From an uncultured Candidatus Saccharibacteria bacterium (lineage in GTDB: Bacteria > Patescibacteriota > Minisyncoccia > Sungbacterales > SURF-37), in NCBI GenBank assembly GCA_964363965.1, contig CAYIKH010000001.1, forward strand, positions 727 to 64,726: DNA of 64,000 bases, in the 5' to 3' direction. The translations under genes and the position numbers were made by a program. This document shows positions 23,905 to 56,809 of the stretch, one piece after another. The notes under the pieces are model-generated. The model had not been told where the DNA came from, ran no database searches, and was given only the letters and a program-made list of their open reading frames with translations. Positions within the stretch are counted from its first letter, which is position 1. Every line of letters starts with the position of its first letter.

Positions 23905-23993
23905 GAGGTTGGGGTTGAAATTCCTTCGCGGTAGTCGAGGCCGAGACCTCGATGCCGGTGGAGAAGTATTCTTAAAAGAGGCACATCTGCTAT

Positions 23994-31948: not shown

Positions 31949-32046
31949 GAGGTCTTAGCTGGTGAGCGATTAGTCGGCCGATGACCGAAACCTATTCTTG
32001 TGAGGTATTTCTATCTGGATATGCATCGGCAACATTCGAACTCAAC

Positions 32047-33051: not shown

Positions 33052-33064
33052 GTTTAAGTAGACC

Positions 33065-38243: not shown

Positions 38244-39566
38244 ATCAGTTGAAATGTCGTAGTTGGCCTCGCTTTGCAGTATTTGATCGAGACTGGCGGC
38301 GAGTGCGGCAATGGAGTCTATGTGGTAGCGTTCGGGGATGGGAATGGCGAATTCTCGTTTGCCTCGCAGTTTCGCGGTTGCGGTTTGGCGTTTTTCGCGC
38401 CAGAGCGCGATCGGCCCGACAAAAGCTCTCCAGAGGTGATGCAGCTTCATGCGCCTTGAAATAAGCACCAGCGGCACTCCCAGCGCCCGGATTACGGCCT
38501 CGAGCTTAAGCCGTTTTTTTTCTGCCGCCGGCAAGGTTTCGAGGAAGCCGAATAAATTCAACCAATTGGCTAGAGCCGTAAAAAAATCAGTGTCGAGGTA
38601 GAAAAGTTCCCTAAGATATAATTCGGCGAATCGAGCGTAATTTATCTTGAAGCCGCCGACGAGATCCGGAAGCAATTGTTGAACCCGGAGGTAATTTTCC
38701 AGAATTCCGTTGACTCTTGTGTAGGCGGAAACAGGACTGAATTCAGGCTTGAACGGTCGGGCTTGAAAGCGCCGGTGCGCCGCGGTTGACCAGGCTTGAC
38801 TCATTGATACGCCGAGCCGGCCGACAATAACCACCGGCCGATCGATGAAAAAGCACGATTTGGCAAAAGCAAACATAATTGGCTGAAGGGAATGGATGTT
38901 GGGCATATCGGCGAGTAGGAGAAATCCCAGTCGCATGATGGCTCGTTCTATAACCTGACGGGATATCACCGTGGCCGAAAAATGGAAGCGCGGCAAAGTC
39001 TGTCCCGGTCCTCGCTTCCCAAAGTCATAGAGGCTCCTGATGGTTTCCCTAAGGTCAATTTTCCGGCTTTGGCCGGTAAAGGGTATAATGCCAAGACCGT
39101 TTCTTAGGAAACGGCGCGGATGGTTTTGGTCGTAATAGTAGAAGTGGCTCGCGGTTATGATTTCCGATCCGTCCTGCCGTATTGCCTCGCGAAAAAGTTC
39201 AAGGGCCTGCGGCAGAAGGTAATTGTCGTCATCAAACCACATTACGTATTCGCCCCGCGCTTCTTTTGCGGCGTGGTCCCAGGTTATAAGTCCGGGGCCA
39301 GGCGGGGGATGGAGATAGCGGATGCGCGGATCTCCAGAGTCGGTGGCCGCGCGTTCGGATTCAGGAGACGTGCTCAAATCCGAGATGACAATTTCAAAAT
39401 CCTGAAAGCTTTGCTCCAGAACCGATTTGACGGCCATGCGGATGAGTTCAGGCCGGCCGGTGGTCGGAATAAGTATTGAGAAAAACGGCCTTTTCGTTTT
39501 ACTTTCATTGCTCATAGCAATAAATTCACCATACATTAATACCAAAATGCGCGCCATTATTCTCAC
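38217..39566 (-). CDS. GT2 family glycosyltransferase with extended C-terminal domain
   Basis: FSILIPTTGRPELIRMAVKSVLEQSFQDFEIVISD...WFDDDN. The start is uncertain among GTG 39566, ATG 39557 and ATG 39515. Confidence 0.65.
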   Translation of the reverse strand: MRIMARILVLMYGEFIAMSNESKTKRPFFSILIPTTGRPELIRMAVKSVLEQSFQDFEIVISDLSTSPESERAATDSGDPRIRYLHPPPGPGLITWDHAAKEARGEYVMWFDDDNYLLPQALELFREAIRQDGSEIITASHFYYYDQNHPRRFLRNGLGIIPFTGQSRKIDLRETIRSLYDFGKRGPGQTLPRFHFSATVISRQVIERAIMRLGFLLLADMPNIHSLQPIMFAFAKSCFFIDRPVVIVGRLGVSMSQAWSTAAHRRFQARPFKPEFSPVSAYTRVNGILENYLRVQQLLPDLVGGFKINYARFAELYLRELFYLDTDFFTALANWLNLFGFLETLPAAEKKRLKLEAVIRALGVPLVLISRRMKLHHLWRAFVGPIALWREKRQTATAKLRGKREFAIPIPERYHIDSIAALAASLDQILQSEANYDISTDLQSVKPLQ

Positions 39567-40533
39567 CGAACCGAAAGGTTACTCGAAAACGGCAATAGCC
39601 GTTTTGAACAAGCTCGGCCGGGTGTATCCCTGGTCGGAGGCAAGGAAAAAGCCGGCCATTCTCAAAAGAGCCGGCATCTTGGTGGTCAAACTCGGTATTA
39701 AAATATCAAAACCGCTTCTGGATAAACTTCCGAATTTGAAAATAATCGGCACTTCGACCACCGGACTCAACCACATTGATATAGAAGAAGCCAGACAGCG
39801 GGAGATTCAGGTTATCTCACTTCGTGGAGAGATGCGATTTTTAAAAACCATATTTCCCACAGCCGAGGAGACGATCGGGCTCATAATCATGCTTATTCGC
39901 AAGTTGCCTTGGGGGTTTGACGCGGTTAGGGCCGGCAAGTGGCAAAAGGAGAAGTTTTACGGCCATGAGCTTTTTGGCAAGACATTGGGCATCATCGGCT
40001 TCGGCCGCTTGGGTTCAATGGTTGCAGGTTTTGGCCGGGCTTTGGGCATGAGCGTGATTGCCTGCGACCCTTATGTTTCTGCGGCCGTGATGCGGCGGGC
40101 GGGAGTGAAAAAAGTTTCCATGGATGCTGTTTTCAAACGCGCTGATGTTGTCTCTATCCACGTTCTCCTCACGGGCAAAACCCATAACCTCATCAAACGC
40201 CGCCACTTCCGCCTGATGAAGCCGACGGCTTATTACATTAACACCGCCCGCGGTGAGATAAATAACGAGAAGGCTCTACTCGAGGCCTTGGAGAAAAAAT
40301 GGATTGCCGGTGCCGCTCTCGATGTTCTCGCCAATGAAGATCCGAAGGGGCGCCATGTAAAACGCCATCCGCTTGTGCGCTACGCCAAACGCCATAGGAA
40401 TCTGATTATCGTCCCGCACCTCGGCGGCGCCACATTCGAATCCATGGCGCGTACCGAGGAATTTATCGCCGAGAAGATCGCTCACTTCGTCCAGAAACGC
40501 CGCTCTCCTCTGAGTCGGTATAAAGGGATGTAA
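39547..40533 (+). CDS. D-isomer-specific 2-hydroxyacid dehydrogenase family (glycerate/phosphoglycerate DH-like)
   Basis: GKTLGIIGFGRLGSMVA; the start was chosen at MRAIIL. Confidence 0.75.
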   Translation: MRAIILTEPKGYSKTAIAVLNKLGRVYPWSEARKKPAILKRAGILVVKLGIKISKPLLDKLPNLKIIGTSTTGLNHIDIEEARQREIQVISLRGEMRFLKTIFPTAEETIGLIIMLIRKLPWGFDAVRAGKWQKEKFYGHELFGKTLGIIGFGRLGSMVAGFGRALGMSVIACDPYVSAAVMRRAGVKKVSMDAVFKRADVVSIHVLLTGKTHNLIKRRHFRLMKPTAYYINTARGEINNEKALLEALEKKWIAGAALDVLANEDPKGRHVKRHPLVRYAKRHRNLIIVPHLGGATFESMARTEEFIAEKIAHFVQKRRSPLSRYKGM

Positions 40534-40541
40534 GGAATCGC

Positions 40542-41678
40542 ATGATTGCCACGAAACCCGCCCCCACCGCTTCCCTCATGGACCTGATTGCCTCAGGTCA
40601 TGTTTTTGTGGTGGCCGAGATCGGAAAGAATTTCATCCAAACCCAGGAAGAACGGCCGATCGCAGAATATTTAGAAAACGCCAAAGCTCTGGTGAAGGCC
40701 GCGCATGAAGCCGGGGCTGATGCGGTGAAATTCCAGACCCACAATGTTGAGGATGAGCAGTTGAATATCCTTGTGGTCTCGCCGCATTTTAAGGGTGTGG
40801 ATCGCTATTCGTGGTTGACGAGAAACACCAAAGCCACGCCGCTTGAACACTTCTGGCGCCCGCTCAAGACCTATTGCGACGAACTCGGTATAATTTTTCA
40901 CTCAACGCCGATGTCGCGGGGCGCGGCTCAAAAACTGAATGAGCTTGGCGTTGAACTCTGGAAAGTCGGCTCCGGAGATATTTTGGATTTTGTTGCGCTT
41001 GATTTTCTTACCTCCACCGGCAAACCCATTATCATGTCTTCGGGGATGTCCACAATAGAAGAGCTTGATCAGGCCATTGATTTTCTCAAGCGTCGGGAGG
41101 CATCAGTAATTTTGCTCCACTGCGTCTCAAAGTATCCCTGCCCACCGGAGCATCTCAACCTTGCGACCATCGGGTTTTTGCGTGAGCGCTACGGGATTCC
41201 AGTCGGTTTCTCCGACCACTCTATTGGCATTGATTCGGCTCTGGCCGCCGTTGCCCTTGGCGCTCAAGTCATTGAAAAACATTTTTCATTCTCCCGGGAC
41301 CTCTGGGGTGCGGATCACAAGGTTTCAATGACGCCGGAGGAATTGAAGGCGCTGGTTAGCGGCATCCGTGAACTTGAACGCGACCCGTCAAAAAAGGCCG
41401 CCTATTTGGAGAAGGACAGCGTGAAAGCCGGCATGGGTTCCGGCACAAAAGTCCTGCAGGAAGATGAAGCTGTTTTCCGGCCTTATTTCCGAAAATCCCT
41501 CATGGCTGGCCGCGATATCCCGGCCGGCACGGTGATTACCGCTGATATGCTCTATGCCATGCGTCCTCAGCAATACGCCGGAGGATTGCCGTCGGAGGAG
41601 TACGGGAACGTCCTCGGCAAAGTGACCAAGGTAGGCTTGAAGAAGTATGATCCAATTCGGTGGGAGAATTTCAGCTAG
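40542..41678 (+). CDS. neuB: N-acylneuraminate (nonulosonic acid) synthase
   Basis: AEIGKNF...AGADAVKFQTH, LHCVSKYPCPPE, VGFSDHSIG and a C-terminal SAF-like domain. Confidence 0.8.
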   Translation: MIATKPAPTASLMDLIASGHVFVVAEIGKNFIQTQEERPIAEYLENAKALVKAAHEAGADAVKFQTHNVEDEQLNILVVSPHFKGVDRYSWLTRNTKATPLEHFWRPLKTYCDELGIIFHSTPMSRGAAQKLNELGVELWKVGSGDILDFVALDFLTSTGKPIIMSSGMSTIEELDQAIDFLKRREASVILLHCVSKYPCPPEHLNLATIGFLRERYGIPVGFSDHSIGIDSALAAVALGAQVIEKHFSFSRDLWGADHKVSMTPEELKALVSGIRELERDPSKKAAYLEKDSVKAGMGSGTKVLQEDEAVFRPYFRKSLMAGRDIPAGTVITADMLYAMRPQQYAGGLPSEEYGNVLGKVTKVGLKKYDPIRWENFS

Positions 41679-41681
41679 ATT

Positions 41682-42923
41682 ATGGTGCTCGTAAAAACGC
41701 GCAAACAAAAGGTTAAGGAGTTTTTAAAGGAAATTCCGATAAAGACCGGTCTTATTCCGCCACGGCAGAAGCGGAAGGTCTGTTTTATTATTACCAACCG
41801 CATCCATTACGCCCGCCAGGAAATTCTTTTGAAGCAGCTTAGAGGCGATCCTGATTTTGAGTTGCAGTTGATTGTTGGTGGAGCCGCGCTTTTGGAAAAA
41901 TATAGCGAGGTTCCGGCGGCTCTGGCCCGCCGCGGGTTTGAAATCCAGGAGACAATGCTTAATCTCATTGAAGGCGGGAATCACGTGGCCATGGCGAAGA
42001 CCGCCGGCCTGGCCGTGCTCGAGCTCGCCAACACCTTCCAGAAGCTGAATCCGGACATTGTTTTGATCCGCGGCGACCGGTTTGAACAGCTGGCCGCGGC
42101 CATGACCGCCGCCTACCTGAACAAGACCGTGGCCCATATTGAGGGCGGGGACGTGACCGGTACTATTGACGAGAGCGTGAGGCATGCTATCACCAAACTC
42201 GCTCATATCCACTTTGTGACCAATGATGATGCCTACCGCCGGGTGTTGCAGATGGGCGAAAATCCGGCCTATGTTTTTCACGTAGGCTCGCCGGATCTTG
42301 AATTCGCGGCCGCGGTGAAACGAAAACCGGATCAGGCCATGATGAATCGGATTGGTGTTGGCGGGCACATTGACTTTTCAAAGCCCTATATCCTGGTCAT
42401 CCAGCACCCGGTGACCAGCGAAACCGAGAACCTGGAAAACGTTATTAAAACGCTTCAGGCCGTGAGCAGCCTTGGGGTGCAAGCGCTTTGGTTCTGGCCC
42501 AATCCCGATGCCGGCACGGATGAAATTTCAAAAGGCATACGGCGCTTTCGTGAGCATACCCCCAGCCCACATATTCGCTTTGTCGTTGACATCCATCCTC
42601 GGGATTTTGTCGCGCTTCTGGGCGCATCGGCATGCCTGGTTGGCAATTCTTCATCCGGCATCAAGGAAGCATCGTTTTTCGGCGTGCCGGTGGTCAATAT
42701 CGGAACGCGCCAGCAGGGGAGGACGCGGGCCGAGAACGTGATGGATGTGGGTTATGATACTGATGGGGTCAAACGCGCCATATTCTTGCAGATGGGCCAC
42801 GGTCTTTATTCGCCTTCGCACCTCTACTACAAAACCGAGACCTCCAAGCACATCCGCAAAGTGTTGAAGACCGTGCCTCTTTACACTCAAAAGCGGTTTC
42901 ACGACCAATCTTTTGTCGCATGA
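41682..42923 (+). CDS. neuC: UDP-N-acetylglucosamine 2-epimerase (hydrolysing), NeuC-like
   Basis: KVCFIITNRIHYAR...HIEGGDVTGTIDESVRHAITKLAHIHF. Confidence 0.75.
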   Translation: MVLVKTRKQKVKEFLKEIPIKTGLIPPRQKRKVCFIITNRIHYARQEILLKQLRGDPDFELQLIVGGAALLEKYSEVPAALARRGFEIQETMLNLIEGGNHVAMAKTAGLAVLELANTFQKLNPDIVLIRGDRFEQLAAAMTAAYLNKTVAHIEGGDVTGTIDESVRHAITKLAHIHFVTNDDAYRRVLQMGENPAYVFHVGSPDLEFAAAVKRKPDQAMMNRIGVGGHIDFSKPYILVIQHPVTSETENLENVIKTLQAVSSLGVQALWFWPNPDAGTDEISKGIRRFREHTPSPHIRFVVDIHPRDFVALLGASACLVGNSSSGIKEASFFGVPVVNIGTRQQGRTRAENVMDVGYDTDGVKRAIFLQMGHGLYSPSHLYYKTETSKHIRKVLKTVPLYTQKRFHDQSFVA

Positions 42924-43636
42924 AAATACTAGGGGTTATAACTGCAAGAGGAGGCTCGAAGTCTATTCCTAGGAAAAACATCAGGGAACTCGCCGGTAAG
43001 CCGCTCATCGCTTGGACCATCGAGGCGGCCAAGGAATCCGGCGTTTTCGACCGCATTATTCTCTCAACCGATGACCCAGAGATTGCCGAGGTGGGACGCA
43101 AGTGGGGGATTGATGTCCCATTCATGCGTCCGGCTGAACTAGCCGAGGACACGACCCCGCATCTTCCAGTGATGCAGCATGCGGTCACGTGGTTGAAAGA
43201 ACAGGAGGGTTACGAGCCGGATTTCGTTGCCATTCTTCAGCCGACTGCGCCGCTCCGCCAGGCTTTTCATCTCCGTGAGGCCGTGGAGCTCTTAAGGAAA
43301 ACCGGCGCCGATTCAGTGGTCAGCATGGTGGAGATTCCCGGGCACTTCAGCCCGTATTGGGCGGTCGAAGTTGACGAGAACGGTTTGGGCACGCTTCTCG
43401 TCTCGGGTGAGCCGATTAAAAAGCGTATCCCGCGTCGCCAGTCCCTACCCAAGGCCTATGCGCATTCAGGCGCGATTTATTTATTCCGCACTGGTTTGCT
43501 GTTTGATCCGGCCGAGCCGAATTTCTACGGGGATAAAGTCGCGGCCTACGTGATGGAAGATAAATACAACGTCAACATTGACGGCCCCGAGGATTGGGAA
43601 CGCGCCGAAATTGCCGTCAAGAAACTTAGTAGCTAG
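42920..43636 (+). CDS. neuA: CMP-N-acylneuraminate (nonulosonic acid) cytidylyltransferase
   Basis: GVITARGGSKSIPRKN...LSTDDPEIA; overlaps neuC by ATGA. Confidence 0.75.
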   Translation: MKILGVITARGGSKSIPRKNIRELAGKPLIAWTIEAAKESGVFDRIILSTDDPEIAEVGRKWGIDVPFMRPAELAEDTTPHLPVMQHAVTWLKEQEGYEPDFVAILQPTAPLRQAFHLREAVELLRKTGADSVVSMVEIPGHFSPYWAVEVDENGLGTLLVSGEPIKKRIPRRQSLPKAYAHSGAIYLFRTGLLFDPAEPNFYGDKVAAYVMEDKYNVNIDGPEDWERAEIAVKKLSS

Positions 43637-43674
43637 ACTCATAACTCATAACTGGTAACCATTAACTACACCCG

Positions 43675-44532
43675 ATGGGGTTTCTCGTAGCCATCGCAAA
43701 CGCCGCGGCGGTCTCGCTCCAGGATGTCTTCGTCAAGAAGCTCACCGGCGAGAATAAGTTTTTCCTCATTTGGGTTCGGATTGCGGGCGCACTCCCGCCG
43801 CTCGCCGTGCTTGTCACCGTTTTCGCCGCCTGGTCGGTGCCGTCGTGGCAGTTCTGGGCGCTTATCATCGGGGTGAGCGTTCCGCTCGAAACCTTTGCCT
43901 TCTGGCTCGGCTACACCGCGCTCCAGAAGATGCCCCTCTCGCTTGCCGCGCCTCTCCACGGCTTCACCGGTGTGTTCCTGGTTCCGGTGGGCTACCTCAT
44001 GCTCGGCGAGGTGCCGAGCGTATTCGGCCTCATGGGCATCCTCTCGGTTTTCGTCGGCGCCTTTTTCCTCGGACGCGCTGGCTCGACAAGCGGAATCCTC
44101 GGTTCCTTCCAGAATCTTCTTCGGACGCCGGGCTCGTGGATCGTGCTCGCCGCCGCGTTCATTGTTACCATCCCGATCTCGATTGCGAAAATTTCCTTCC
44201 AGTACGCGCCGCCGCTCCTCACGGCTTTCTATATCGCAGCCGCGATGGCCTTAGCGCTGATTCCCTTTGCTCTTCGCGGCGGCGCGAGCATCCGGATCCG
44301 GGGCAATGGCCGTTTCATCGCGGCCTCGGCAGTGGTCTCGGGTGCCTCGCTCGGCCTCCACTACACCGGCCTTTCACTCCTGCCCGCGGCCTACTTCATT
44401 TCGACAAAGCGCCTCTCCATTCTCTTCAATGTCCTTTACGGGAAGTTTCTCTTCAGCGAGGAGCATATCGGCGAGCGCTTCATCGGCGCCGCTCTTATGG
44501 TCGCCGGCGTCGCTCTGATCGCGCTGGGGTAG
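43675..44532 (+). CDS. DMT/EamA-family membrane transporter
   Basis: 285 aa with about 10 hydrophobic helices in a duplicated EamA-like arrangement. Confidence 0.55.
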   Translation: MGFLVAIANAAAVSLQDVFVKKLTGENKFFLIWVRIAGALPPLAVLVTVFAAWSVPSWQFWALIIGVSVPLETFAFWLGYTALQKMPLSLAAPLHGFTGVFLVPVGYLMLGEVPSVFGLMGILSVFVGAFFLGRAGSTSGILGSFQNLLRTPGSWIVLAAAFIVTIPISIAKISFQYAPPLLTAFYIAAAMALALIPFALRGGASIRIRGNGRFIAASAVVSGASLGLHYTGLSLLPAAYFISTKRLSILFNVLYGKFLFSEEHIGERFIGAALMVAGVALIALG

Positions 44533-44551
44533 GCTTGCGAGATCCTTGACA

Positions 44552-44581
44552 CCGTAGCACCGCCGTGCTACGGTTTTTTTG
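44552..44581 (+). terminator. Intrinsic terminator after the DMT transporter gene
   Basis: ccgtagcac-cgcc-gtgctacgg stem-loop followed by tttttttg. Confidence 0.65.
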
Positions 44582-44644
44582 CTCTTCGACAATTTAAGTA
44601 TGCTTGGGTACTGCACACTTGCAACGGCATGAGGAGGAAAACAA

Positions 44645-45748
44645 ATGACTTTAACAGCAGGAATTCTCGGTTACGGTGAACGCGGAAAGACCTTAGCAAA
44701 AGTCATTCGCGAGAATATTCCGGAAGTCAGGCTCGTCGCGGCCGCGGATCCCGCCATCGAAAGGCGGGACGAAGCCGTAAAAAGCGGTTTGGGTGGATAC
44801 GAAAGTGCAGAAGAGCTCTTTGATAGGGCCCGTCCTCAGATCGCCGTTATCGCCACCAACCCGCCACAGCACTGTGAGCAGGTGTTGATGGCTGCGGAGC
44901 ACGGATGCCACATTTTCTGTGAGAAGCCGTTGGCGCTCTCGCCGGAAGAAGCCGATCGGATGGTCGCGGCTGTGCGCCGGGCCGGCGTCGTGTGCACCGT
45001 GGACTTCGAGACCATCTTCGCGGACTCGTTCGCTGTGCTTCGCGTGCAGCTCCAGCGTGAGGGATTCGGCAAACTGCTCCGTTTCGACGCGGTGGACAAA
45101 GGTAGGCCGCCGGCTTACGACATCGAGACCTGCATGCCGCATTTCCTCCACGCGTTCATGACCCTCACCGGCTCGAAACCTGTGGAGGTGTTTGGTCGGG
45201 TCGTCGTGGATGGCAGAAAGGCGACCCTCGGCGATGTCGTGCCGATCAGGGAGCTTTATCCGCAGGGCCGCACGCACGATATCGGAATGCGGGCGGATAC
45301 GATCGAAGCCACGTACCTCTTGGCAAATGGCGTAACGGTCCGCTACTTCCTGGCCGAGCTGGATGAGGCCTACGTCGTTGAGGCAGGCAGGAGGGCAAAG
45401 CCCGGAAGTGAGTTCATGAATTTCATCGCGTGCGGCACGCGCGGGCAGGTGAAGTGGCACCAGACCTCAACCGGTTACGTCTATCGCAAAGACGTGCCGC
45501 AGGATACGCTCTCGGTCATGGACTGGGAGTTGGTGTGCGCCCCGGAGAAGCCGGATCCGACATGGGTAGCGCCGACTACTCGGTTGGCACAGGATTTCGT
45601 GGATGCCATCGTACGCGGCCGTGAGCCTGCCACGACCATCGAGGACGCCGCATCCGTCGTTGATCAGACCTACGGCATCTACGTCTCGCATCTCGTCGGG
45701 CGGCCGGTCAAGCTCCCGCTCGAAGATCGGAAGCACCCGCTCCTATAG
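44645..45748 (+). CDS. Gfo/Idh/MocA family oxidoreductase
   Basis: GILGYGERGKT...VAAADP...HIFCEKP; a strong SD (gaggagg) lies upstream. Confidence 0.75.
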   Translation: MTLTAGILGYGERGKTLAKVIRENIPEVRLVAAADPAIERRDEAVKSGLGGYESAEELFDRARPQIAVIATNPPQHCEQVLMAAEHGCHIFCEKPLALSPEEADRMVAAVRRAGVVCTVDFETIFADSFAVLRVQLQREGFGKLLRFDAVDKGRPPAYDIETCMPHFLHAFMTLTGSKPVEVFGRVVVDGRKATLGDVVPIRELYPQGRTHDIGMRADTIEATYLLANGVTVRYFLAELDEAYVVEAGRRAKPGSEFMNFIACGTRGQVKWHQTSTGYVYRKDVPQDTLSVMDWELVCAPEKPDPTWVAPTTRLAQDFVDAIVRGREPATTIEDAASVVDQTYGIYVSHLVGRPVKLPLEDRKHPLL

Positions 45749-45772: not shown

Positions 45773-45804
45773 GCGGCGGCAGAGCCTTCTGCCGCCGTTT
45801 TTTT
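45773..45804 (+). terminator. Intrinsic terminator
   Basis: cggcggcaga-gcct-tctgccgccg followed by a T7 run. Confidence 0.7.
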
Positions 45805-45922
45805 CAATGTTAGTCTGCGAGCGCACCAATTTTTCCCAGCACGCACTATGTCATTCTGAGCTCCGCTGAAAGCGGGGCGAAGAATCTCGAGATCCTTCGG
45901 GCTCCGCCCTCAGGATGACGGA

Positions 45923-48253
45923 ATGAAAAACAACCGCTTACGCGTTGTGGCAAATTGGTTCGGGGTTATACAGCTCATTGTCAGATCTTACGGCGATATG
46001 TTAAAGTGGTTTGGTATGTCCCCAACCGAAAAATATCTCTCCTGGATTTTAAAAGGCGGATTATTACTCACGCCTTTTCTTGTTTTCATCGTGACGCGCT
46101 CGCTCTATTTTCCGTTCATCACCGGCAAGAATTTCGCCTTCAGGATTCTCATTGAAATCCTGGCGGTGATTTGGGTTTATGCTGCCTTGCGATATGAGCG
46201 CTTCCGGCCGCGCTTCTCGTGGCTAGGTGCGGCTGTAGTGGTGTTCATTGCCGTGATGGGTTTGGCCGTTATTTTCTCGCTTTCGCCCTACCGCAGCTTC
46301 TGGTCAAACTTCGAGCGGATGGAGGGCTACATCGGCCTTTTACACTTTCTTGCCTACTTCCTGATTCTGGGGAGCGTATTTGCGGGCGAACGCGATTGGC
46401 GGATATTTTTTTCAACTTCACTTGCGGCAAGCGTCGCCATCTCGTTTTATGCGGTGTTGCAGCTTGCCGGCAGACTTGCCATTCATCAGGGCGGGACGCG
46501 AGTAGATGCCACCTTGGGCAATGCCACATATCTTGCTGCCTACCTTCTCTTCCATATTTTTTTCCTGCTTTGGTTTTTACTCCGCTCCCGCGAGCTCTGG
46601 CTCCGCGTCGGCCTTGGCGCAGTCTTAGCATTCGAGCTTGTCATCCTCTACTTCACCGCCACCCGCGGGGCAATACTCGGGCTTCTGGGCGGGTTTATTG
46701 TCCTTGGGCTACTGCTGGCTTTGCTGGAACGCGGAACTCTACGCCGCATCGCCTTGGCCGGCCTGGGAATTGTTGTTCTAATTCCGGCGGTATTTTTCTT
46801 TATCCGGGACACTTCGCTGGTGAAGTCAAGCGATGTTCTAATCCGTTTCGCTTCAATATCGCCCTCCGAGACCACCACCCAGGCGCGCTTCACCATCTGG
46901 AACATGGCCCTGCAGGGTTTTAAGGAACGGCCTATTCTCGGCTGGGGTCAGGAAAACTTCATCTATGTTTTTTCGAAATACTACGACCCATCGCTGTGGC
47001 GTCAGGAGCCGTGGTTTGACCGCGCTCATAACGTCTTTCTGGATTGGCTCACCGCCGGCGGGGTGCTGGGACTTTTGAGTTATCTTGCCATGTTTGCGGC
47101 CGCGGGCTGGCTCCTGGTCTCGGCCCTCCGGGCGCGGACGATTGATGCGGTAACCTTCGGCATCTTTTCCTCGCTCCTGGCGGCCCATTTTTTCCAGATT
47201 CTTTTTGTTTTTGATAATCTTACAAGCTACCTTCTATTTTTCGGAGTGCTTGCCTATGTGCACTCGACAGCGGCCGGGTTCGCTAGCGGTGCGGAGATTG
47301 CGGCCTCTGGCGGCCGGTCAAAGCCAAAAGCCGTCAGCTTGCGAGGGCTCGAGCTTCCCTTGGGTGCTACGGTCGGGGTGACGGCGCTTGTCGCGGCCGG
47401 GATGATCCTGCTTCTTTACTTTGCAAACATCAGGCCGATTATGGCCGCAAAGTCAATTTTGGACGCGCTTCGCTTAAACCAGGTTCATGAGCCGGCCGGA
47501 AAGGTTGATGCCATGATGTTGGAATTCCGGCAAGGGCTTGAATTACGCACCTTTGGCACCATGGAACTCCGCGAGCAGATTTCTCAGACGTCAAACTTCA
47601 TCCTGCGAGATTCGTCGATTGCGCTACAGGATAAAGAAAAATATATCGAGTTTGCCATTCAGGAGCTCGAGGCCCAGCGCACCGCCGTTCCTTCAGATGT
47701 CCGGGCTAAAGCCTTCCTTTCTACGCTTTATGTGGCCGGGGGGCGTCCGGCCGATGCCATCCGCGTCGTTGACGAGGCGCTGGCCATCAGCCAGCGCCGC
47801 CAGCAATTTTACTTTATTGCCGCGGAGGCCTACTTGAACGCCGGCGATAACCAGCGAGCCGTTGAGGTTCTATCCCGCGCCTATGATCTGGCCCCTGATT
47901 ACCCCGAAGCCATTACCAACCTTGCCGTAGTCTATATCTTGAGCGGAAAAGACGAGGAGGCAGAGTTGCTGTTTGAGAAACACTTTGGAACGCGCGTTGT
48001 GGCCAGGGAGCAATATGCCCAGGCGTATCTGCAGATTGGACGATTTGATAAAGCCGCAGAAATATGGGAGGTTATGGCCGCCGCGAACCCCAACGATGCC
48101 AGACTCCACGCTGCGCTCGGCGTGGCTTATGCCCGTTCCGGCCGGCCGCAAGAAGGGATTCGGGAGATTGAAAAAGCCATTGAGCTTGAGCCTAATTTCA
48201 AGTCAGACGGAGAGATGATTATTCAAAGCATCAGAAGCGGACAAATCAGATAA
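45923..48253 (+). CDS. O-antigen ligase/polymerase-like (Wzy_C) membrane protein fused to C-terminal TPR repeats; candidate O-oligosaccharyltransferase
   Basis: The multi-TM N-terminal region carries the Wzy_C signature RAHNVFLDWLTAGGVLGLL. The C-terminal ~300 aa hold TPR-like repeats (AEAYLNAGDNQRAVEVLSRAYDLAPDY...). The start is uncertain; alternative Met codons lie downstream. Confidence 0.65.
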   Translation: MKNNRLRVVANWFGVIQLIVRSYGDMLKWFGMSPTEKYLSWILKGGLLLTPFLVFIVTRSLYFPFITGKNFAFRILIEILAVIWVYAALRYERFRPRFSWLGAAVVVFIAVMGLAVIFSLSPYRSFWSNFERMEGYIGLLHFLAYFLILGSVFAGERDWRIFFSTSLAASVAISFYAVLQLAGRLAIHQGGTRVDATLGNATYLAAYLLFHIFFLLWFLLRSRELWLRVGLGAVLAFELVILYFTATRGAILGLLGGFIVLGLLLALLERGTLRRIALAGLGIVVLIPAVFFFIRDTSLVKSSDVLIRFASISPSETTTQARFTIWNMALQGFKERPILGWGQENFIYVFSKYYDPSLWRQEPWFDRAHNVFLDWLTAGGVLGLLSYLAMFAAAGWLLVSALRARTIDAVTFGIFSSLLAAHFFQILFVFDNLTSYLLFFGVLAYVHSTAAGFASGAEIAASGGRSKPKAVSLRGLELPLGATVGVTALVAAGMILLLYFANIRPIMAAKSILDALRLNQVHEPAGKVDAMMLEFRQGLELRTFGTMELREQISQTSNFILRDSSIALQDKEKYIEFAIQELEAQRTAVPSDVRAKAFLSTLYVAGGRPADAIRVVDEALAISQRRQQFYFIAAEAYLNAGDNQRAVEVLSRAYDLAPDYPEAITNLAVVYILSGKDEEAELLFEKHFGTRVVAREQYAQAYLQIGRFDKAAEIWEVMAAANPNDARLHAALGVAYARSGRPQEGIREIEKAIELEPNFKSDGEMIIQSIRSGQIR

Positions 48254-48439
48254 CCGAAATTCTAAATCCGAATATCGAAATCCGAAACAAATTCGAATTT
48301 TCAAATTCTAAATTTCAAACACGTTTCGGTTTTTAGAGTTTAGGTATTGGGATTTGTTTCGAATTTCGTGCTTCGTGCTTCGGATTTCAGTCTTGGTATA
48401 AACCTGGTTTCCTGGATTAAGGTAATAACTAATGGAAGC
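48254..48439. repeat. Low-complexity intergenic repeat region
   Basis: Degenerate repeats of aaattctaaat / cgaaatccgaa, plus a tandem tcgtgct x2 (48366-48379). Confidence 0.5.
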
Positions 48440-49324
48440 ATGAATAAAATCCCCATTGGCATCATCGGCGTAGGCATGGTCGGCGGCGCCTATGCCGATT
48501 GGTTCGAAACCCAGGGGCATCCCATCCGTAGATACGATCTTTTCAAAAGGATCGGCTCGCTCGAGGAGGTGAACGGCGTTGAGCTTGTACTCATCGCCGT
48601 GCCTACGCCATTTGATGAGGCCACGGACCGATTTGACGGGAGAGCCGTCGAGAGCGCCGTCTCTTCGCTGGTTGGTATGAAGACCGTGATCATCAAGTCA
48701 ACGGTTCTTCCCGGGACGACCGAGATGCTCCAGCAAAGATACCCCCAGCACCGCATTCTTTTTTCGCCGGAATTTCTTACGGAATCAAGCGCCGCCGATG
48801 ACGTTAGTCATCCAAAGATAAACCTCATCGGTTATACCGAAGCATCCCGTTCCGTTGCGCCGGATGTCTTGTCCCTCTTCGCGCGTGCGCCCTTTGAGAA
48901 GATAATGCCGAGCGGCGAGGCCGAATTATTCAAGTACCTCCGTAACGCCTTCTTCGCCACGAAAGTTATCTTTTTCAATCAGATGTATGATCTTTGCACG
49001 AAGCTCGGCATTGACTACGAGGCCATCCGCGAATGCGTAGCGCACGACCCCTGGATCGGGGGACAACACACGATCATCCGGCACAAGGGCTACCGCGGCT
49101 ACGGCGGCAAGTGCCTGCCCAAGGACACGCGCGCATTCCTCCGATTCTCGGCGGAGCATGGCGTCAACCAGCAGCTCCTCGATGTAGTGGATGAGATCAA
49201 CCAGAAGATCACCGCCATTCCCGGCTCATCGACAGAACGTGAAGGTGAAAGGATGGGTGTGAAAGAGAAGTTTGAGTCCCGAGTCCTGAATCAGGAATCC
49301 CGTCAGAGGCGAGGCTCGCCCTGA
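48440..49324 (+). CDS. UDP-glucose/GDP-mannose dehydrogenase family protein, short form lacking C-terminal UDP-binding domain (possibly truncated)
   Basis: IGIIGVGMVGG NAD motif and the GGKCLPKD catalytic Cys motif. At 294 aa it ends in a non-homologous tail where the ~100-aa C-terminal domain would be. Confidence 0.55.
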   Translation: MNKIPIGIIGVGMVGGAYADWFETQGHPIRRYDLFKRIGSLEEVNGVELVLIAVPTPFDEATDRFDGRAVESAVSSLVGMKTVIIKSTVLPGTTEMLQQRYPQHRILFSPEFLTESSAADDVSHPKINLIGYTEASRSVAPDVLSLFARAPFEKIMPSGEAELFKYLRNAFFATKVIFFNQMYDLCTKLGIDYEAIRECVAHDPWIGGQHTIIRHKGYRGYGGKCLPKDTRAFLRFSAEHGVNQQLLDVVDEINQKITAIPGSSTEREGERMGVKEKFESRVLNQESRQRRGSP

Positions 49325-49332
49325 TGGGCGGC

Positions 49333-49374
49333 AGGAATCAGGAATGTTGATGCGCTTCATGATTCCTGATTCTT
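49333..49374. terminator. Hairpin at convergent gene junction (possible bidirectional terminator)
   Basis: gaatcaggaat (49335-49345) pairs with attcctgattc (49362-49372). There is no clean U-tract. A third copy of aatcaggaat lies at ~49292 inside the upstream gene tail. Confidence 0.4.
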
Positions 49375-49384
49375 AGTTCCCGTA

Positions 49385-50803
49385 CTATCGGCCGCTCCGC
49401 TGCAAGAGCTTAAGAGTAGTTTTTAGCAAGATGGTGAGATCGAGAAAAAGAGAGCGATTTTTAATATAGTAAAGATCGTATTGGATTTTAGTCGGGGCAT
49501 CGGCCACTGAGGCATCGTTTTCCATGTTGGTCTGGGCCCAGCCGGTGAGGCCTGGTAAAACTAGCTCGCGCATGCGGTAGAATGGTATTTCATTCTCGAG
49601 GGCAGATACGAATTCCGGACGCTCCGGCCGCGGGCCGACGAATGACATCTCGCCTAAAATGATGTTCCAAAACTGAGGTAGCTCATCAAGGTAGGTTTTG
49701 CGCAAGAACTCGCCAACCCGGTAGGATCGCGGATCTGGACCAACGGCGCTTTTTTCATGCCCCATCTTCTCCGCGCCAAGCACCTGACTTCTAAATTTCA
49801 GGAAATTGAAAATACGGCCGTTTTTGCCGACTCTGGCCTGGCGGAAGAAAATGATGCCGTCGCCTTCACGGGCGCGGCGCTTTTTGTAATTAACGATGTC
49901 GAGGGGCGTGGAGAGGATAATACCCAAAGCAATAAACGGCAGGAGTATAAGAGCCACAACTCCCAGGATAGTGACCAGCATCAAGTCGAGTATGCGCTTA
50001 GCGAATTCATACCTGGGACGATGCATGCCGACAAGATTCTCCAGGAACCACGTTTCGGTGATGAGCGAGACCGGAACTTTTCCAGTTACGTTTTCATAAA
50101 AGCGCCTGAGATCAACTATGCTTACACCCAGCGGCACGACTCCAAAAGGCGTTTTGGCTAAAGTCGGGGCGCGCCTGGCTTCATGAGCCACGACGATCCG
50201 GCCTATCCGCTTTTCGCGAATAATCCTGCCCAGTTCCCCGCTGAATACCGGCACTCCAGCCGGAAGCGGCGGCTGTGAGGCGCGGTTATTATTTTCAAGG
50301 AAGAATGTGGGGATGAACCCAAGCTGGGGATTGACCGTAAGAAAAGCCGCCAGTTCCAGCACCTCGGGAGCAAAGCCCCAAAAAAGCACCCGTTCTTTGG
50401 TTCTTTGAATGAGGAGGGTGTTGTAAATCTTTCGCCACCCAAAAAGAAATACGGTCAAGGTAAAAAAGATAATTATAAGGGTGGCCAGGGGCCGCAGGCG
50501 GAATTCAGGAATAAGATAGAAGAGCAGGACCGTGACGACAAAATTAAAGGCCATGGCTCTGGCCAGGCGCTCGAAGAACGGCGGTTCGTTTTTAGCTATT
50601 TTGAGGTCATAAAGGCCAAAGGCGGCCAGCCCCCCGAACCAAAGCGCCATCAGGAACGGCGCGGCAAAAAGATAAAGCTTGGTTATCGTCGGCTCAGGCC
50701 TGCCGCCGTAGCGCAAGATAAGCGAGGCGGCGAGCGCCGCGGCAAAGATCACAAGGTCGCAAAGGACGAGAATGAAATTTTTGAGTGCAATCGGCCGGTG
50801 CAT
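49385..50803 (-). CDS. Polyprenyl-phosphate sugar-1-phosphate transferase (WbaP/WcaJ-like initiating phosphoglycosyltransferase)
   Basis: An N-terminal multi-TM region precedes the Bac_transf C-terminus MSFVGPRPERPEFV...LPGLTGWAQ. Confidence 0.8.
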   Translation of the reverse strand: MHRPIALKNFILVLCDLVIFAAALAASLILRYGGRPEPTITKLYLFAAPFLMALWFGGLAAFGLYDLKIAKNEPPFFERLARAMAFNFVVTVLLFYLIPEFRLRPLATLIIIFFTLTVFLFGWRKIYNTLLIQRTKERVLFWGFAPEVLELAAFLTVNPQLGFIPTFFLENNNRASQPPLPAGVPVFSGELGRIIREKRIGRIVVAHEARRAPTLAKTPFGVVPLGVSIVDLRRFYENVTGKVPVSLITETWFLENLVGMHRPRYEFAKRILDLMLVTILGVVALILLPFIALGIILSTPLDIVNYKKRRAREGDGIIFFRQARVGKNGRIFNFLKFRSQVLGAEKMGHEKSAVGPDPRSYRVGEFLRKTYLDELPQFWNIILGEMSFVGPRPERPEFVSALENEIPFYRMRELVLPGLTGWAQTNMENDASVADAPTKIQYDLYYIKNRSLFLDLTILLKTTLKLLQRSGR

Positions 50804-50819
50804 TTTAGGCAGTGAAGTT

Positions 50820-51980
50820 TTAGCGGTTTTGATAAACTGTGATGGTCTTGGCGATCATGGCCTCAATGTCAAAACCTGTGGCGATGCGTTTTTGGGCTTC
50901 TTGGGCCATGGCTTGACATCGGTCGGGTCTGTCGATTAGAGCCAAGATGGCCTTGGCTATAGCTCCAGCGTTTTTGGGCGGCACGATCAGGCCGCTTTTG
51001 CCGTCAGAGATGAGATCAGGGATGCCGCCGACATTCGTGGCTACAACCGGCAAACCGGCGGCCATAGCTTCCATAATAGAATAGGGCAGACCTTCTTTCA
51101 CTGACGGCAGTACGAAAATATCAAGTCCCTTGAGGTAGCGCGCTGCATCTGGCATGAAGCCAATGAGATGCACGATATTGCCGAGGCCAAGCGTCTGAAT
51201 TTGCCGTTCGATGGCAACGCGATCTTCGCCTTCACCGATGACCATAACTTTGAACTTTAAATTTTGAGCTTTGGATTTTATTAGCTTGATGGCATCAATC
51301 AGGTAAGTCAGGCCCTTATTTTTAGTGAGTTCGGCAATAGTGCCAATAAGAACTAAATCGTGATCCTCTTCCTGCCCAATGGCCTGCATAAAAAAGGCCC
51401 GGGCTGATTCTCGGGGCCGGAAGTCAATTGGGGCGATGCCATGGGCAATGAGATAAAGCTTGGTTTCCGGAATAAACCAGCGCGCCGTTGCAAGATCCGC
51501 CCGATCTATGAGGATTATTTTATTCTGGAAAAGCGACGAAAGCCAGCTCAGGAAAGAGATGGTCAATTTCTGCCACCATGCCCGATCTTCTCTAAACGGC
51601 CAGCCATGTACCGTGAAAGTCACCAGTGACCAGTGACCAGTAACCAGTGACGCAAGCTTGGCCGCTATGGCGCCGAGGCCGCCGACTTTTGAGCTATTAA
51701 GGTGGACGATATCCGGTTTTTCGCGGTAAATAATTTTTATAAATGAAAAGAACGTCAGCAACTCTTTGGCGAAGTTGATGTCGCGTTCTAGGCCGGCTAT
51801 TGAAATAATACGGACACGTCGCTCTTCAAGACGCTTCACCAGCGCTCCTCCGCCGCCGCAGACCACAGCAATATCAAATTGATCCGGCGGCAGGCGAGTA
51901 GCCAGGTCATAAATATATTTTTGGGCGCCGCCCCAATTAGATTTTGTGATTACATATAGAATTTTTTGACGCTGATTCAT
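50820..51980 (-). CDS. GT4 (GT1-fold) glycosyltransferase
   Basis: VLPSVKEGLPYSIMEAMAAGLPVVATNVGGIPDLI is the E-x7-E region of GT4. Confidence 0.8.
   Translation of the reverse strand: MNQRQKILYVITKSNWGGAQKYIYDLATRLPPDQFDIAVVCGGGGALVKRLEERRVRIISIAGLERDINFAKELLTFFSFIKIIYREKPDIVHLNSSKVGGLGAIAAKLASLVTGHWSLVTFTVHGWPFREDRAWWQKLTISFLSWLSSLFQNKIILIDRADLATARWFIPETKLYLIAHGIAPIDFRPRESARAFFMQAIGQEEDHDLVLIGTIAELTKNKGLTYLIDAIKLIKSKAQNLKFKVMVIGEGEDRVAIERQIQTLGLGNIVHLIGFMPDAARYLKGLDIFVLPSVKEGLPYSIMEAMAAGLPVVATNVGGIPDLISDGKSGLIVPPKNAGAIAKAILALIDRPDRCQAMAQEAQKRIATGFDIEAMIAKTITVYQNR
51622..51651 (-). repeat. Heptanucleotide tandem repeat (ACCAGTG)x4 inside GT4 coding sequence
   Basis: accagtg accagtg accagta accagtg ac encodes SLVTGHWSLVT on the minus strand. 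The unit length is not a multiple of 3. Confidence 0.8.
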
Positions 51981-52183: not shown

Positions 52184-52978
52184 ATGGGTGCTAAAACAAT
52201 TCGGTATTCGCATCGTGATGCCGCGATGGTCATTTTTGTCGCGGCGATTTTCATACTGGCAGTAGTCTATAGCGTCTTTTCAACTACTATCGGTGAAAGT
52301 GTTAACACCGGCGGAACGCTGACCGTGAGTGGGGCCTCAACCTTAACTGGAGCAATCAATGCTTCTTCAACCTTGCAGGTTACTGGTGACGGGCTTTTCT
52401 ATGATCAGCTCTCGGCTGGCGCCTCCACCAACACTCCGACCACGACCTTCAACGTCACTGGTTCGGGCTACTTTACAGGCGGTCTTGGCGTAGGTTATGC
52501 CACCACAGGAACGGGCAACCTCCTTGTCTCGAATTTGGGTGTCTTTCAGCACCGCTTAGGGGTGGCATCCACCTCGCCGGTGCGCAGTTTTGAAGTCGGC
52601 GGCTCCGGCCTCTTTTCTGACGGACTCGGCGTTGGCTACGCTACCACCAGCGGATTCCGGGTCGCCGGCACCGGCCTCTTTGACAACCGCGTCGGGGTTA
52701 CGGCAACGACGGCTCCTTACCAGGAGCTCGGCGTCGGGGGTGACATTGCCGCGAGTTCTAACGCCACGACGACCGTTTCGGCAGAATCAACCGGAACGGA
52801 GATCGGCAGTTGCATAGAGTTGAAAGGCGGCAGGGCCCAGGGCGAGATGAGGTGGATACGCATCTACGTCGGCGGATCGGGCGCCACCAACACTACTGCG
52901 GCCGGTACTATTCCTTCGGCGGTGATCCAGGCCGGCGGGGTTGGACTCTTAGTCATCCAGGAAGGTCGCTGTCAGTAA
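52184..52978 (+). CDS. Thr/Gly/Ser-rich repeat-containing surface protein with N-terminal membrane anchor/signal
   Basis: N-terminal hydrophobic helix (VIFVAAIFILAVVYSVF), then ~40-aa internal repeats (GLGVGYATT...GTGLF...) with very high T/G/S content. Confidence 0.5.
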   Translation: MGAKTIRYSHRDAAMVIFVAAIFILAVVYSVFSTTIGESVNTGGTLTVSGASTLTGAINASSTLQVTGDGLFYDQLSAGASTNTPTTTFNVTGSGYFTGGLGVGYATTGTGNLLVSNLGVFQHRLGVASTSPVRSFEVGGSGLFSDGLGVGYATTSGFRVAGTGLFDNRVGVTATTAPYQELGVGGDIAASSNATTTVSAESTGTEIGSCIELKGGRAQGEMRWIRIYVGGSGATNTTAAGTIPSAVIQAGGVGLLVIQEGRCQ

Positions 52979-53043: not shown

Positions 53044-54177
53044 ATGGGACACTTTTTCTTTCGTCTTGGGATTTATGTAGGGTTGCTTGGCGCTCCGCTG
53101 TTAGCCTTTGGTGCCACGGTGGAGCTGTCAATCACTGCTCAAGCTGCAGGCAAAAATTACACGGTTAGCGGCAGTATGACTTCCATTGTTCTTTCCGGCA
53201 ATGACTTTCAGGTAACTCTCGTGAATGGCGAAAACATTACGGTTGAATCACCGGACAAATCCAAGCTGACTTTTGCCGACGCGCCGACCACCTTTACCGA
53301 GACCTGCGGTTCAAGCACTTATTCGGTCCGCATTGAGAAATCAAGCGGCGCGTCCCAGACATTCACTATGACGCCTACGGCCACCACTTGCGGCGCAGCC
53401 ACCGGCAGCGGCGGAGGAGGAACCGGCACAACCGGAGGAGGAGGCGGAGGAGGCGGGGGCGGCGGCGGTCCTTCTTATGCGGCAATAACAACGCCAACTA
53501 CTGCCCCGGCACCTGCACCAGCCCCGGCTCCAGCATTTGGCATAACTTCGGATCTGGCCGCCGGTTCGCAGTCAAACGAAGTAGCGCAACTCCAAGCTTA
53601 TTTAGCTTCTGATTCATCCCTCTATCCTGAAGGTCTGGTCACCGGCTATTACGGTCAGCTAACAGCGGCCGCGGTCAGACGTTTCCAAGCCAAGTACGGC
53701 TTGCCACAGGTTGGCCGAGTTGGCCCTCTTACGCGAGTCAAGTTGGCTGAAATTTTTGGGCCCGTGGCTACGCCAGCACCAACTCCGGCTCCAGCACCAA
53801 CACCCACTCCAGCTCTCCCAGCCGGAGCCGCTATTACCAAGACGCTTCAGCGCGGCTCACAAAACGATGAAGTCTCAACCCTTCAGGCCTTCTTAGCTAA
53901 AGATCCGGCTATTTATCCGGAGGGACTGGTTACTGGTTACTTTGGTCCAGCCACCGAAGGGGCGGTAAAGCGCTTCCAAGAAAAATACGGCATTGATTCT
54001 ATTGGCGTTGTCGGGCCCAAGACGCGTTCTAAGCTCAACGAACTCCTCGGCGCCGCCACGGCGCCAACCCCAGCGCCTACTCCGGCGCCTGCCGGCGATG
54101 ACGCGGCCAAGATCAAGGCGCTTCAGGAACAGCTTAAGGCCTTAGAGGACCAATTGAAAACCCTGCAAGGCCAGTAA
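53044..54177 (+). CDS. Secreted protein with poly-Gly tract, PT-rich linkers, two PG_binding_1-like peptidoglycan-binding domains and C-terminal coiled coil
   Basis: Signal-like N-terminus, G-run (GGGGTGTTGGGGGGGGGGGG), TPAPAPAPAP / PAPTPAPAPTPTP linkers, two copies of ...LQA(Y/F)LA.D...YPEGLVTGY(Y/F)G..T..AV.RFQ.KYG(L/I)...G.VGP.T..KL, and a terminal KALQEQLKALEDQLKTLQ. Confidence 0.6.
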   Translation: MGHFFFRLGIYVGLLGAPLLAFGATVELSITAQAAGKNYTVSGSMTSIVLSGNDFQVTLVNGENITVESPDKSKLTFADAPTTFTETCGSSTYSVRIEKSSGASQTFTMTPTATTCGAATGSGGGGTGTTGGGGGGGGGGGGPSYAAITTPTTAPAPAPAPAPAFGITSDLAAGSQSNEVAQLQAYLASDSSLYPEGLVTGYYGQLTAAAVRRFQAKYGLPQVGRVGPLTRVKLAEIFGPVATPAPTPAPAPTPTPALPAGAAITKTLQRGSQNDEVSTLQAFLAKDPAIYPEGLVTGYFGPATEGAVKRFQEKYGIDSIGVVGPKTRSKLNELLGAATAPTPAPTPAPAGDDAAKIKALQEQLKALEDQLKTLQGQ

Positions 54178-54255: not shown

Positions 54256-54324
54256 TTCTCCGCCGCTTGGCGGAGAAATCCACCTATTTGTCGGTATAAA
54301 GCCCCCGTAAGGGGGTTTTATACG
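54256..54324 (+). terminator. Two tandem intrinsic-terminator-like hairpins
   Basis: ttctccgcc-gctt-ggcggagaa (54256-54277), then aaagccccc-gtaa-gggggtttt followed by ata (54298-54324). Confidence 0.55.
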
Positions 54325-56380: not shown

Positions 56381-56806
56381 TTGAAGAAACTCCGTCCCGG
56401 CTCGCCGGGACTCAAAATAAGCCGCCATTTTGGCCTCCATCTTACACTGGACGGCTATTTGGCCAGCCGCCAAAAATTGAATGATATGGCCTTAGTGGCC
56501 AAGGCCTTGAAAGAATTGCCGGAGAGATTGGGTATGACGCGCCTTACTCCGCCCTATGTTGTGGAAGTGGCCTCCAACAACAAAAAAGATCCGGGCGGCT
56601 ATTCCGGATTTGTCATAATCCAAGAGTCACATATATCAATTCACACCTTTCCCAGCAGGCGTTTCGTTTCCATTGACGTCTACTCCTGCCGCGATTTTGA
56701 TCCTCGGCCCATCCGCCGCTATTTTCGGCGGATATTTAGCATTCGCAAATTAGAAAACCATCTCATTATTCGCGGAACCGAATATCCGATGAAGGACTTC
56801 ATTTAG
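56381..56806 (+). CDS. speH: S-adenosylmethionine decarboxylase proenzyme family (class 1b, pyruvoyl-dependent), copy 1
   Basis: GFVIIQESHISIHTFPSRRFVSIDVYSC holds the ES|H self-cleavage motif; the N-terminus has H...D..Y/C. Confidence 0.7.
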   Translation: MKKLRPGSPGLKISRHFGLHLTLDGYLASRQKLNDMALVAKALKELPERLGMTRLTPPYVVEVASNNKKDPGGYSGFVIIQESHISIHTFPSRRFVSIDVYSCRDFDPRPIRRYFRRIFSIRKLENHLIIRGTEYPMKDFI

Positions 56807-56809
56807 CTT

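Follow-up and report, generated by a model that had tools for sequence, protein, structure and literature searches.

The window analysed here is a 64,000-nucleotide stretch of contig CAYIKH010000001.1 (assembly GCA_964363965.1) from an uncultured, ultra-small groundwater bacterium of the Sungbacterales (Patescibacteriota), and the subject of this report is one gene in it whose product joins a Wzy_C membrane domain to a C-terminal tetratricopeptide repeat (TPR) domain, hereafter Wzy_C-TPR, a candidate glycan transferase. A glycan-biosynthesis region of ~45 kb dominates the window; beyond it lie murB, hpf, split AdoMet decarboxylase genes and secA. Table 1 gives the coordinates of the features discussed below. 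The original prediction, a short note made from the letters of the DNA, had placed a phosphoglycosyltransferase (PGT) gene and a family 4 glycosyltransferase (GT4) gene downstream of Wzy_C-TPR and convergent with it. Both genes lie there in that orientation, and a sugar-nucleotide dehydrogenase gene that it had passed over lies between them and Wzy_C-TPR. The terminator-like hairpin at 45773 closes an upstream sugar-nucleotide operon, and the Wzy_C-TPR gene therefore opens a new transcription unit.

Table 1. Features of the Wzy_C-TPR locus, in window positions, with the number of orthologous loci that hold the same neighbour
Feature	Position	Strand	Remarks	Loci
Upstream donor-sugar genes	39427..45748	+	2-hydroxyacid dehydrogenase, NeuB, UDP-GlcNAc 2-epimerase (NeuC-like), CMP-nonulosonate synthetase, EamA transporter, GFO/IDH/MocA oxidoreductase	
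Intrinsic-terminator-like hairpin	45773..45798	+	11-bp stem, 8 GC pairs, T-run after it	
Wzy_C-TPR open reading frame	45923..48253	+	776 aa counted from first ATG	
Membrane domain	46016..47422	+	13 transmembrane helices, WaaL-like fold	
Large extracytoplasmic catalytic loop	46805..47032	+	aa 295-370; most conserved segment	
Extra 13th transmembrane helix	47360..47422	+	hydropathy, helix aa 480-521 in the AlphaFold2 model, loop charges	
Extracytoplasmic helical-repeat/TPR domain	47423..48250	+	aa 501-776; Pfam TPR, PDB TPR and OGT matches	
Short NDP-sugar dehydrogenase-like protein	48347..49324	+	UDPG_MGDP_dh family; likely start ATG 48440, ~294 aa	13-15
PGT: polyprenyl-phosphate hexose-1-phosphate transferase, large (WbaP/WcaJ class)	49385..50803	-	Bac_transf 7e-53, CoA_binding_3	23-26
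GT4 glycosyltransferase	50820..51980	-	Glycos_transf_1 2e-41, Glyco_transf_4	19-30
'Small' G/S/T/A-rich protein, membrane-anchored or secreted	52184..52978	+	candidate acceptor or partner	20-26
Secreted peptidoglycan-binding protein	53044..54177	+	two PG_binding_1 domains; candidate O-glycosylation acceptor	20-22
Terminator-like hairpin	54294..54323	+	13-bp stem; after the peptidoglycan-binding protein gene	

Residue numbers below are counted from the first ATG. Residue 32 is where many of the homologues in the alignment start, and M32 (ATG at 46016), which gives 745 aa, is therefore the probable first residue of the protein; a 100% identical database protein has been called with 768 aa. An identical protein is encoded on ENA contig Hain_H43_01um_R1_118 (78.8 kb). 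Pfam Wzy_C (PF04932) matches aa 235-388 (E 1.7e-21, 77 bits against a curated cut-off of 31.7) and the motif RAHNVFLDWLTAGGVLG is found at aa 367-383 (47021-47071). The open reading frame and the Pfam match confirm the Wzy_C signature that had been read in a 776-aa protein, and the C-terminal TPR region, put at ~300 aa in the same note, was recovered as many Pfam TPR models at aa ~574-760 (for example TPR_19, 1.5e-18) in a helical ectodomain of ~275 aa (aa ~501-776). None of the NCBIfam models gives the protein a name. We also observed a stable three-way-junction hairpin on the plus strand (45850-45919, GUCAUUCUGAGC...CUCAGGAUGAC; minimum free energy -37.8 kcal/mol, z -4.08 versus shuffles), which comes after the upstream terminator and before the probable start and is present as a single copy in the window. 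It has no Rfam match, and Rfam gave none in the 5' region of the gene or in the whole window; the hairpin may serve as a 5' regulatory element, or it may be a palindromic repeat.

The AlphaFold2 (AF2) model of Wzy_C-TPR, built on 50 homologues, is confident (predicted local distance difference test, pLDDT, 92.3; predicted template-modelling score, pTM, 0.89) and shows a polytopic fold like that of WaaL, in which a large outward loop follows transmembrane (TM) helix 9. Foldseek returned the O-antigen ligase WaaL (7tpg_B) as the best solved match of the membrane domain, with a TM-score of 0.68 over 443 columns. With the membrane domain as a single query sequence, PDB sequences yielded chance matches only, and WaaL was reached by the family profile. 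The hhalign alignment of this profile to E. coli K-12 WaaL spans 265 columns with E 0.033 and Prob 1.5, values that are weak alone, and it puts R248 (46664-46666), R322 (46886-46888) and H369 (47027-47029), which are invariant in the 50 homologues, on R215, R288 and H338 of WaaL. These three WaaL residues are essential and are conserved in PglL as R224, R298 and H349 (PMC3643930). The same procedure with E. coli WzyE and O16 WbbH found no meaningful similarity (E 0.19 and 0.29 over 34-43 columns); the polymerase comparison covers these two E. coli proteins. The motif H[NSQ]X9GXX[GTY] occurs in 50 of 50 family members and in E. coli WaaL and is absent from WzyE and WbbH. It was considered as a ligase-specific signature and dropped, since an HX10G motif has been reported in some polymerases too (PMC2932511).

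The loops predicted to be cytoplasmic are rich in K/R, and every invariant loop residue lies on the opposite face, which argues that TM13, preceded by a K/R-rich cytoplasmic loop (aa 462-479, SGGRSKPKAVSLRGLELP), puts the TPR domain outside. In the predicted topology this domain would share the outer face with the catalytic loop of aa 295-370. Mean pairwise identity is 64% in the catalytic loop, 41% in the TPR ectodomain and 13% in the cytoplasmic loop before TM13. The ectodomain has invariant residues of its own (F544, E548, R550, P590, D592, R594, and F631), and the TPRs of OGT are among its best structural matches.

More than 4900 database proteins match Wzy_C-TPR. The best 120 matches share the Wzy_C-plus-TPR architecture at 40-69% identity; they are ~720-770 aa long except three of 628-684 aa, and they cover mostly 94-99% of the query (83-92% in five). 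The best named relatives come from Candidatus Sungbacteria/Sungiibacteriota, in the Parcubacteria group of the candidate phyla radiation (CPR). A genome scan with one genome per species and two signature peptides as query found the family in at least 594 Patescibacteria species genomes (36-69% identity). Among the 80 loci listed there is one locus per assembly and all 80 are from Patescibacteria, with Sung-, Giovannoni-, Yanofsky-, Yonath-, Taylor-, Niyogi-, Lloyd-, Campbell-, Zambryski- and Vogelbacteria represented.

Gene neighbourhoods were compared at 87 loci (L001-L087), and the counts are given as ranges because they come from two procedures, one a phmmer/HMM search of each entire locus and the other an unbiased clustering limited to ±6 kb. 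Besides the neighbours counted in Table 1, secA is found at 31-39 loci, murB at 23-30, an NAD-dependent epimerase/dehydratase at 32, and NeuB, NeuA, and NeuC recur upstream of the orthologues at 17-28. The order Wzy_C-TPR, murB, (hpf), secA is kept in many Paceibacteria lineages, and in some clades Wzy_C-TPR and murB are set apart by glycan genes and the genes of the two secreted proteins. At ~10 loci of Giovannonibacteria, Niyogibacteria and other relatives the secreted pair comes immediately downstream of Wzy_C-TPR in the same orientation; in the Sungbacteria group, to which this window belongs, the genes for the dehydrogenase, PGT and GT4 separate the pair from Wzy_C-TPR. Glycan-biosynthesis genes surround the Wzy_C-TPR gene at most loci. 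The flanking glycan genes vary from locus to locus and the Wzy_C-TPR enzyme stays conserved. Three kinds of exporter are encoded beside orthologues: a Wzx-type flippase at 14 loci, a fused PglK/MsbA-like ABC exporter at 9, and a Wzm ABC-2 permease with a Wzt ATPase that carries a Wzt_C glycan-binding domain at 10 of the 87, often divergently adjacent. At L047, L052, L056, L064, and L070 the Wzm (ABC2_membrane) and Wzt (ABC_tran plus Wzt_C) genes are divergently adjacent, upstream of the orthologue. The Wzm/Wzt pairs indicate cap-recognising, ABC-transporter-dependent glycan export in some Paceibacteria.

Wzm/Wzt systems export chains that are fully polymerised in the cytoplasm, and such systems need a ligase and no Wzy (established knowledge; see also PMC2943079). 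The 10 loci with Wzm/Wzt therefore argue for a ligase and against a Wzy polymerase. Since the enzyme is conserved, is paired with Wzx, ABC and Wzm/Wzt exporters alike, and aligns with WaaL and not with the E. coli polymerases, we conclude that Wzy_C-TPR is probably a ligase-type enzyme, one that transfers glycans en bloc, and not a polymerase.

The genes that would supply its donor lie on both sides. The large PGT passes NCBIfam TIGR03025 (302 bits, above cut-off) and, judged from its sequence, would make the first sugar linked to undecaprenyl pyrophosphate (Und-PP); the GT4 enzyme is a candidate for addition of the second sugar. That these two make the Und-PP-linked donor had been proposed in the original prediction and is reasonable, with the PGT retained near the gene at about a quarter of the ~87 loci. 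In the dehydrogenase the N-terminal and the central domain are present, along with the catalytic-Cys motif GGKCLPKD, and no match to the C-terminal domain of its family was returned; the dehydrogenase gene is not considered a pseudogene because it is kept at 278-331 aa beside Wzy_C-TPR in the related loci counted in Table 1. The glycan region also holds dehydratases, reductases, C-methyltransferases and several GT2 genes. Two sets of NeuB and CMP-nonulosonate synthetase (21758-24725 and 40542-43636) and three TagF-like glycerophosphotransferase-like genes lie within 20651-43636, with a GDP-heptose-type pathway at 31226-34356. Together they imply an unusually elaborate glycan for a very small genome. 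No Wzx, Wzm, Wzz, PCP, LCP or second Wzy_C gene was found in the 64-kb window.

The proposed route would begin at the cytoplasmic face, where the PGT (49385-50803) may start the glycan on the lipid carrier and GT4 and the upstream cluster (two nonulosonic-acid pathways, the heptose pathway, methyltransferases and TagF-like transferases) would extend it. An exporter encoded outside the window would flip the lipid-linked glycan outward. Wzy_C-TPR would then move the finished Und-PP-linked glycan to a hydroxyl acceptor outside, using R248, R322, and H369 of its outward loop, and TM13 would place the ~275-aa TPR domain on that side to select or hold the acceptor. The likeliest acceptors would be secreted envelope proteins, foremost the fibre-like protein of 52184-52978 and the peptidoglycan-binding protein of 53044-54177.

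In its AF2 model the 'small' protein starts with a TM helix, continues in a long extended stretch, rich in G/S/T/A, in which G-x-x-T-x-x-P motifs recur, and ends in a small beta domain that holds two conserved Cys. Most of the model is extended chain (pLDDT 77.7, pTM 0.46), and Foldseek against the PDB returned nothing significant (best E 0.87). Its family has 62 detectable members, at times as tandem duplicates, and those with a named source are all unannotated Patescibacteria proteins. The second protein is the 'downstream PT-rich protein' of the original prediction and proved to be as described, with AP/TP-rich linkers. It opens with a signal peptide and an N-terminal domain that has two invariant Cys; a poly-Gly stretch, proline-rich linkers and its PG_binding_1 domains come next, and the C-terminal region is coiled-coil-like by sequence. 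In relatives the linkers are mucin-like and rich in S/T. The modified parts of PglL substrates are low-complexity regions rich in Ala/Pro (PMC3643930), and TfpO, PglS, and TfpM are typically encoded beside their targets (PMC12645811). The secreted pair keeps its linkage to the Wzy_C-TPR gene in 20-26 of the 87 loci despite rearranged gene order.

Protein O-glycosylation is suggested by the outward position of the TPR domain and by the lasting linkage of the gene to these two secreted proteins. CPR bacteria have been described without a Gram-negative envelope and lipid A-core is therefore not available as acceptor (PMC6744442). No waa or lpx genes were found in the 64-kb window; judged on that window and the same source, the lipid A-core acceptor and LPS (lipopolysaccharide) core locus of a WaaL in the strict sense are missing here. 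The reading that we favour, by analogy with WsfB or WsaB of Firmicutes, is that Wzy_C-TPR is a protein O-oligosaccharyltransferase (O-OTase), an assignment to which we give an even chance. The original prediction had offered an O-OTase or a polymerase. Its first half draws support from the predicted outward TPR domain, the linked S/T/P-rich secreted pair and the Firmicute precedent, and the second half has fared poorly, as set out below.

Several observations weigh against this reading. TPR domains also serve in polysaccharide export scaffolds, and the TPR domain alone is therefore no proof of a protein acceptor. At ~35 more distant loci Wzy_C-TPR runs directly into murB and secA and the candidate acceptor pair is missing, so that the linkage to the pair is clade-limited. 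PglL_A (PF15864) and Wzy_C_2 (PF11846) were not reported in the Pfam scan at E <= 0.01, which counts against the O-OTase half of the original prediction, and the absence of a flippase gene from the 64-kb window is a further point on this side. Finally, the linkers could be glycosylated by other means. At 8788-10749 and 11303-13210 (+), past a GT2 gene (3887-4573), the window encodes two big polytopic proteins of the membrane, 653 and 635 aa long, with C-terminal soluble domains; they have no PDB sequence match and no Pfam family save a weak full-length DUF2298 match in the first. They were considered as an alternative Wzy or Wzx and set aside, as their size and C-terminal soluble domains look more GT-C-like, and by these features they may be GT-C-type glycosyltransferases. 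Such a pair (8788-13210) could provide a PMT-like second route to the S/T/P-rich linkers.

A ligase that transfers glycans en bloc to something other than protein, be it peptidoglycan, a wall polymer or a membrane lipid anchor, would explain the same ligase-type evidence equally well, with the TPR domain docked on the cell wall or on the peptidoglycan-binding protein. The adjoining murB and secA genes across Paceibacteria suggest a core envelope role, the neighbouring protein of 53044-54177 binds peptidoglycan through its PG_binding_1 domains, and the window combines three TagF-like genes with no LCP-family ligase found there. However, the murB/secA linkage may be plain ancestral synteny, and LCP genes could sit elsewhere in the genome. 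CPR bacteria are thought to scavenge lipids, and if they do, a conserved lipid acceptor is less obvious. We know of no Wzy_C-family enzyme that has peptidoglycan as its acceptor. On balance we consider a non-protein acceptor possible and rather unlikely. One form of it, improbable in our judgement, is that this WaaL-fold enzyme, whose gene is near-core and sits by murB/secA throughout Paceibacteria, joins glycans built on the lipid carrier to peptidoglycan or a wall-bound scaffold, with its TPR domain docked on the wall, and so takes the place of LCP-type ligases in these ultra-small bacteria, which are monoderm and have no LPS. If true, this would add a new acceptor class to the O-antigen-ligase superfamily and identify a key step in CPR surface building.

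Returning to the type of reaction, Wzy_C-TPR could instead be a Wzy-type polymerase of a conserved teichuronic-acid-like wall polymer; it would then link Und-PP-bound repeat units on the outer side of the membrane, with the TPR domain as a built-in co-polymerase or scaffold. The local set of Wzy_C, UGDH-like, PGT and GT4 genes resembles tuaE, tuaD, tuaA, and tuaC of B. subtilis, with weak NCBIfam TuaC and TuaD matches below their cut-offs. A conserved polymer may have a conserved polymerase, as WzyE exemplifies, and the HX10G motif mentioned above is also compatible with a polymerase. Yet Wzy genes are highly divergent (PMC12004945), and Wzy_C-TPR is kept at a conserved single locus amid variable glycan genes. 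The alignment with WaaL extends over 265 columns and matches the catalytic residues, the E. coli polymerases show no such similarity, the window lacks Wzz/PCP and Wzx, and some orthologues are paired with exporters of fully polymerised chains. We therefore regard a polymerase as very unlikely. That Wzy_C-TPR does not act on glycans, and is for instance an IctB-like transporter or a membrane protein with a structural role, is barely credible: the partial match to TIGR00947 IctB reaches 50.2 bits, far under the cut-off of 366.4, the ligase catalytic residues are invariant, and most loci embed the gene among glycan-biosynthesis genes.

Other features of the window were noted in passing. Its first 2000 nucleotides (1-2000) have a GC content of 0.378 versus 0.51-0.59 elsewhere; a phosphonate-binding ABC substrate-binding protein is encoded at 734-1642 (-), and a truncated ABC ATPase lies at the window edge. 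The split AdoMet decarboxylase genes at 56381-57181 (+) lie side by side; both are small members of the AdoMet_dc (S-adenosylmethionine decarboxylase) family, with products of 141 and 123 aa, and the arrangement recurs in related loci.

Parcubacteria and other CPR bacteria are abundant, mostly uncultured and thought to live attached to hosts, and their surface coat is barely known. In the literature searched we found no paper that links CPR or Patescibacteria with O-antigen ligases or O-OTases. We consider Wzy_C-TPR a new, uncharacterised group within the known ligase/O-OTase paradigm, predictable from it and without a break with known mechanisms. It amounts to a conserved terminal glycan transferase, together with the pathway that probably makes its donor (PGT, GT4 and nonulosonic-acid genes) and two candidate acceptors, which makes a model for the surface glycosylation of this lineage concrete and testable. 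As the family appears to accept glycans from Wzx-, ABC-, and Wzm/Wzt-dependent routes, the enzyme may suit glyco-engineering.

Among known systems, the Wzy polymerases (WzyE, WbbH, TuaE) are likewise polytopic and have Und-PP-linked glycans as their substrates on the outer side of the membrane; some of them are members of Pfam Wzy_C, and the tua operon has a gene set similar to the local one. Unlike the hypervariable Wzy proteins, the Wzy_C-TPR family is conserved and co-occurs with Wzm/Wzt. WaaL of C. metallidurans (7TPG/7TPJ) and E. coli is 16-17% identical to Wzy_C-TPR, which differs from it in the 13th TM helix, the 275-aa TPR ectodomain and a gene position outside an LPS core locus. PglL, PglS, TfpO, and TfpM of Gram-negative bacteria have the Wzy_C domain and the catalytic residues in common with Wzy_C-TPR, and PglL-type enzymes transfer Und-PP-linked glycans en bloc to Ser or Thr (PMC3643930, PMC12645811). 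Unlike these four, Wzy_C-TPR is without PglL_A and Wzy_C_2, has no adjacent pilins and carries a far larger TPR ectodomain. OGT provides an analogy only: its TPR array, fused to a glycosyltransferase, selects protein acceptors, and its catalytic domain and donor are unrelated. The eukaryotic TMTC1-4 proteins are TPR-guided glycosyltransferases and are likewise an analogy only.

The closest described systems, likened by the architecture described in PMC2943079, are WsfB and WsaB/WsaA, predicted S-layer protein O-oligosaccharyltransferases. WsfB of P. alvei is a Wzy_C protein with a C-terminal TPR, and the G. stearothermophilus cluster encodes Wzm/Wzt, a separate TPR protein WsaA, the Wzy_C protein WsaB and a WbaP-like initiating enzyme (PMC2943079). 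Unlike WsfB and WsaB, Wzy_C-TPR is near-universal in Paceibacteria and lies beside murB/secA, not in a strain-specific S-layer glycan locus, and its candidate acceptors are not S-layer proteins with SLH domains. In common with them it has a monoderm host, a Wzy_C enzyme with a TPR module and a WbaP-like initiating transferase in the cluster. The use of Wzm/Wzt by the G. stearothermophilus cluster has its counterpart in the 10 orthologous loci described above, and the TPR module is a C-terminal fusion in WsfB as it is here and a separate adjacent protein in the case of WsaA.

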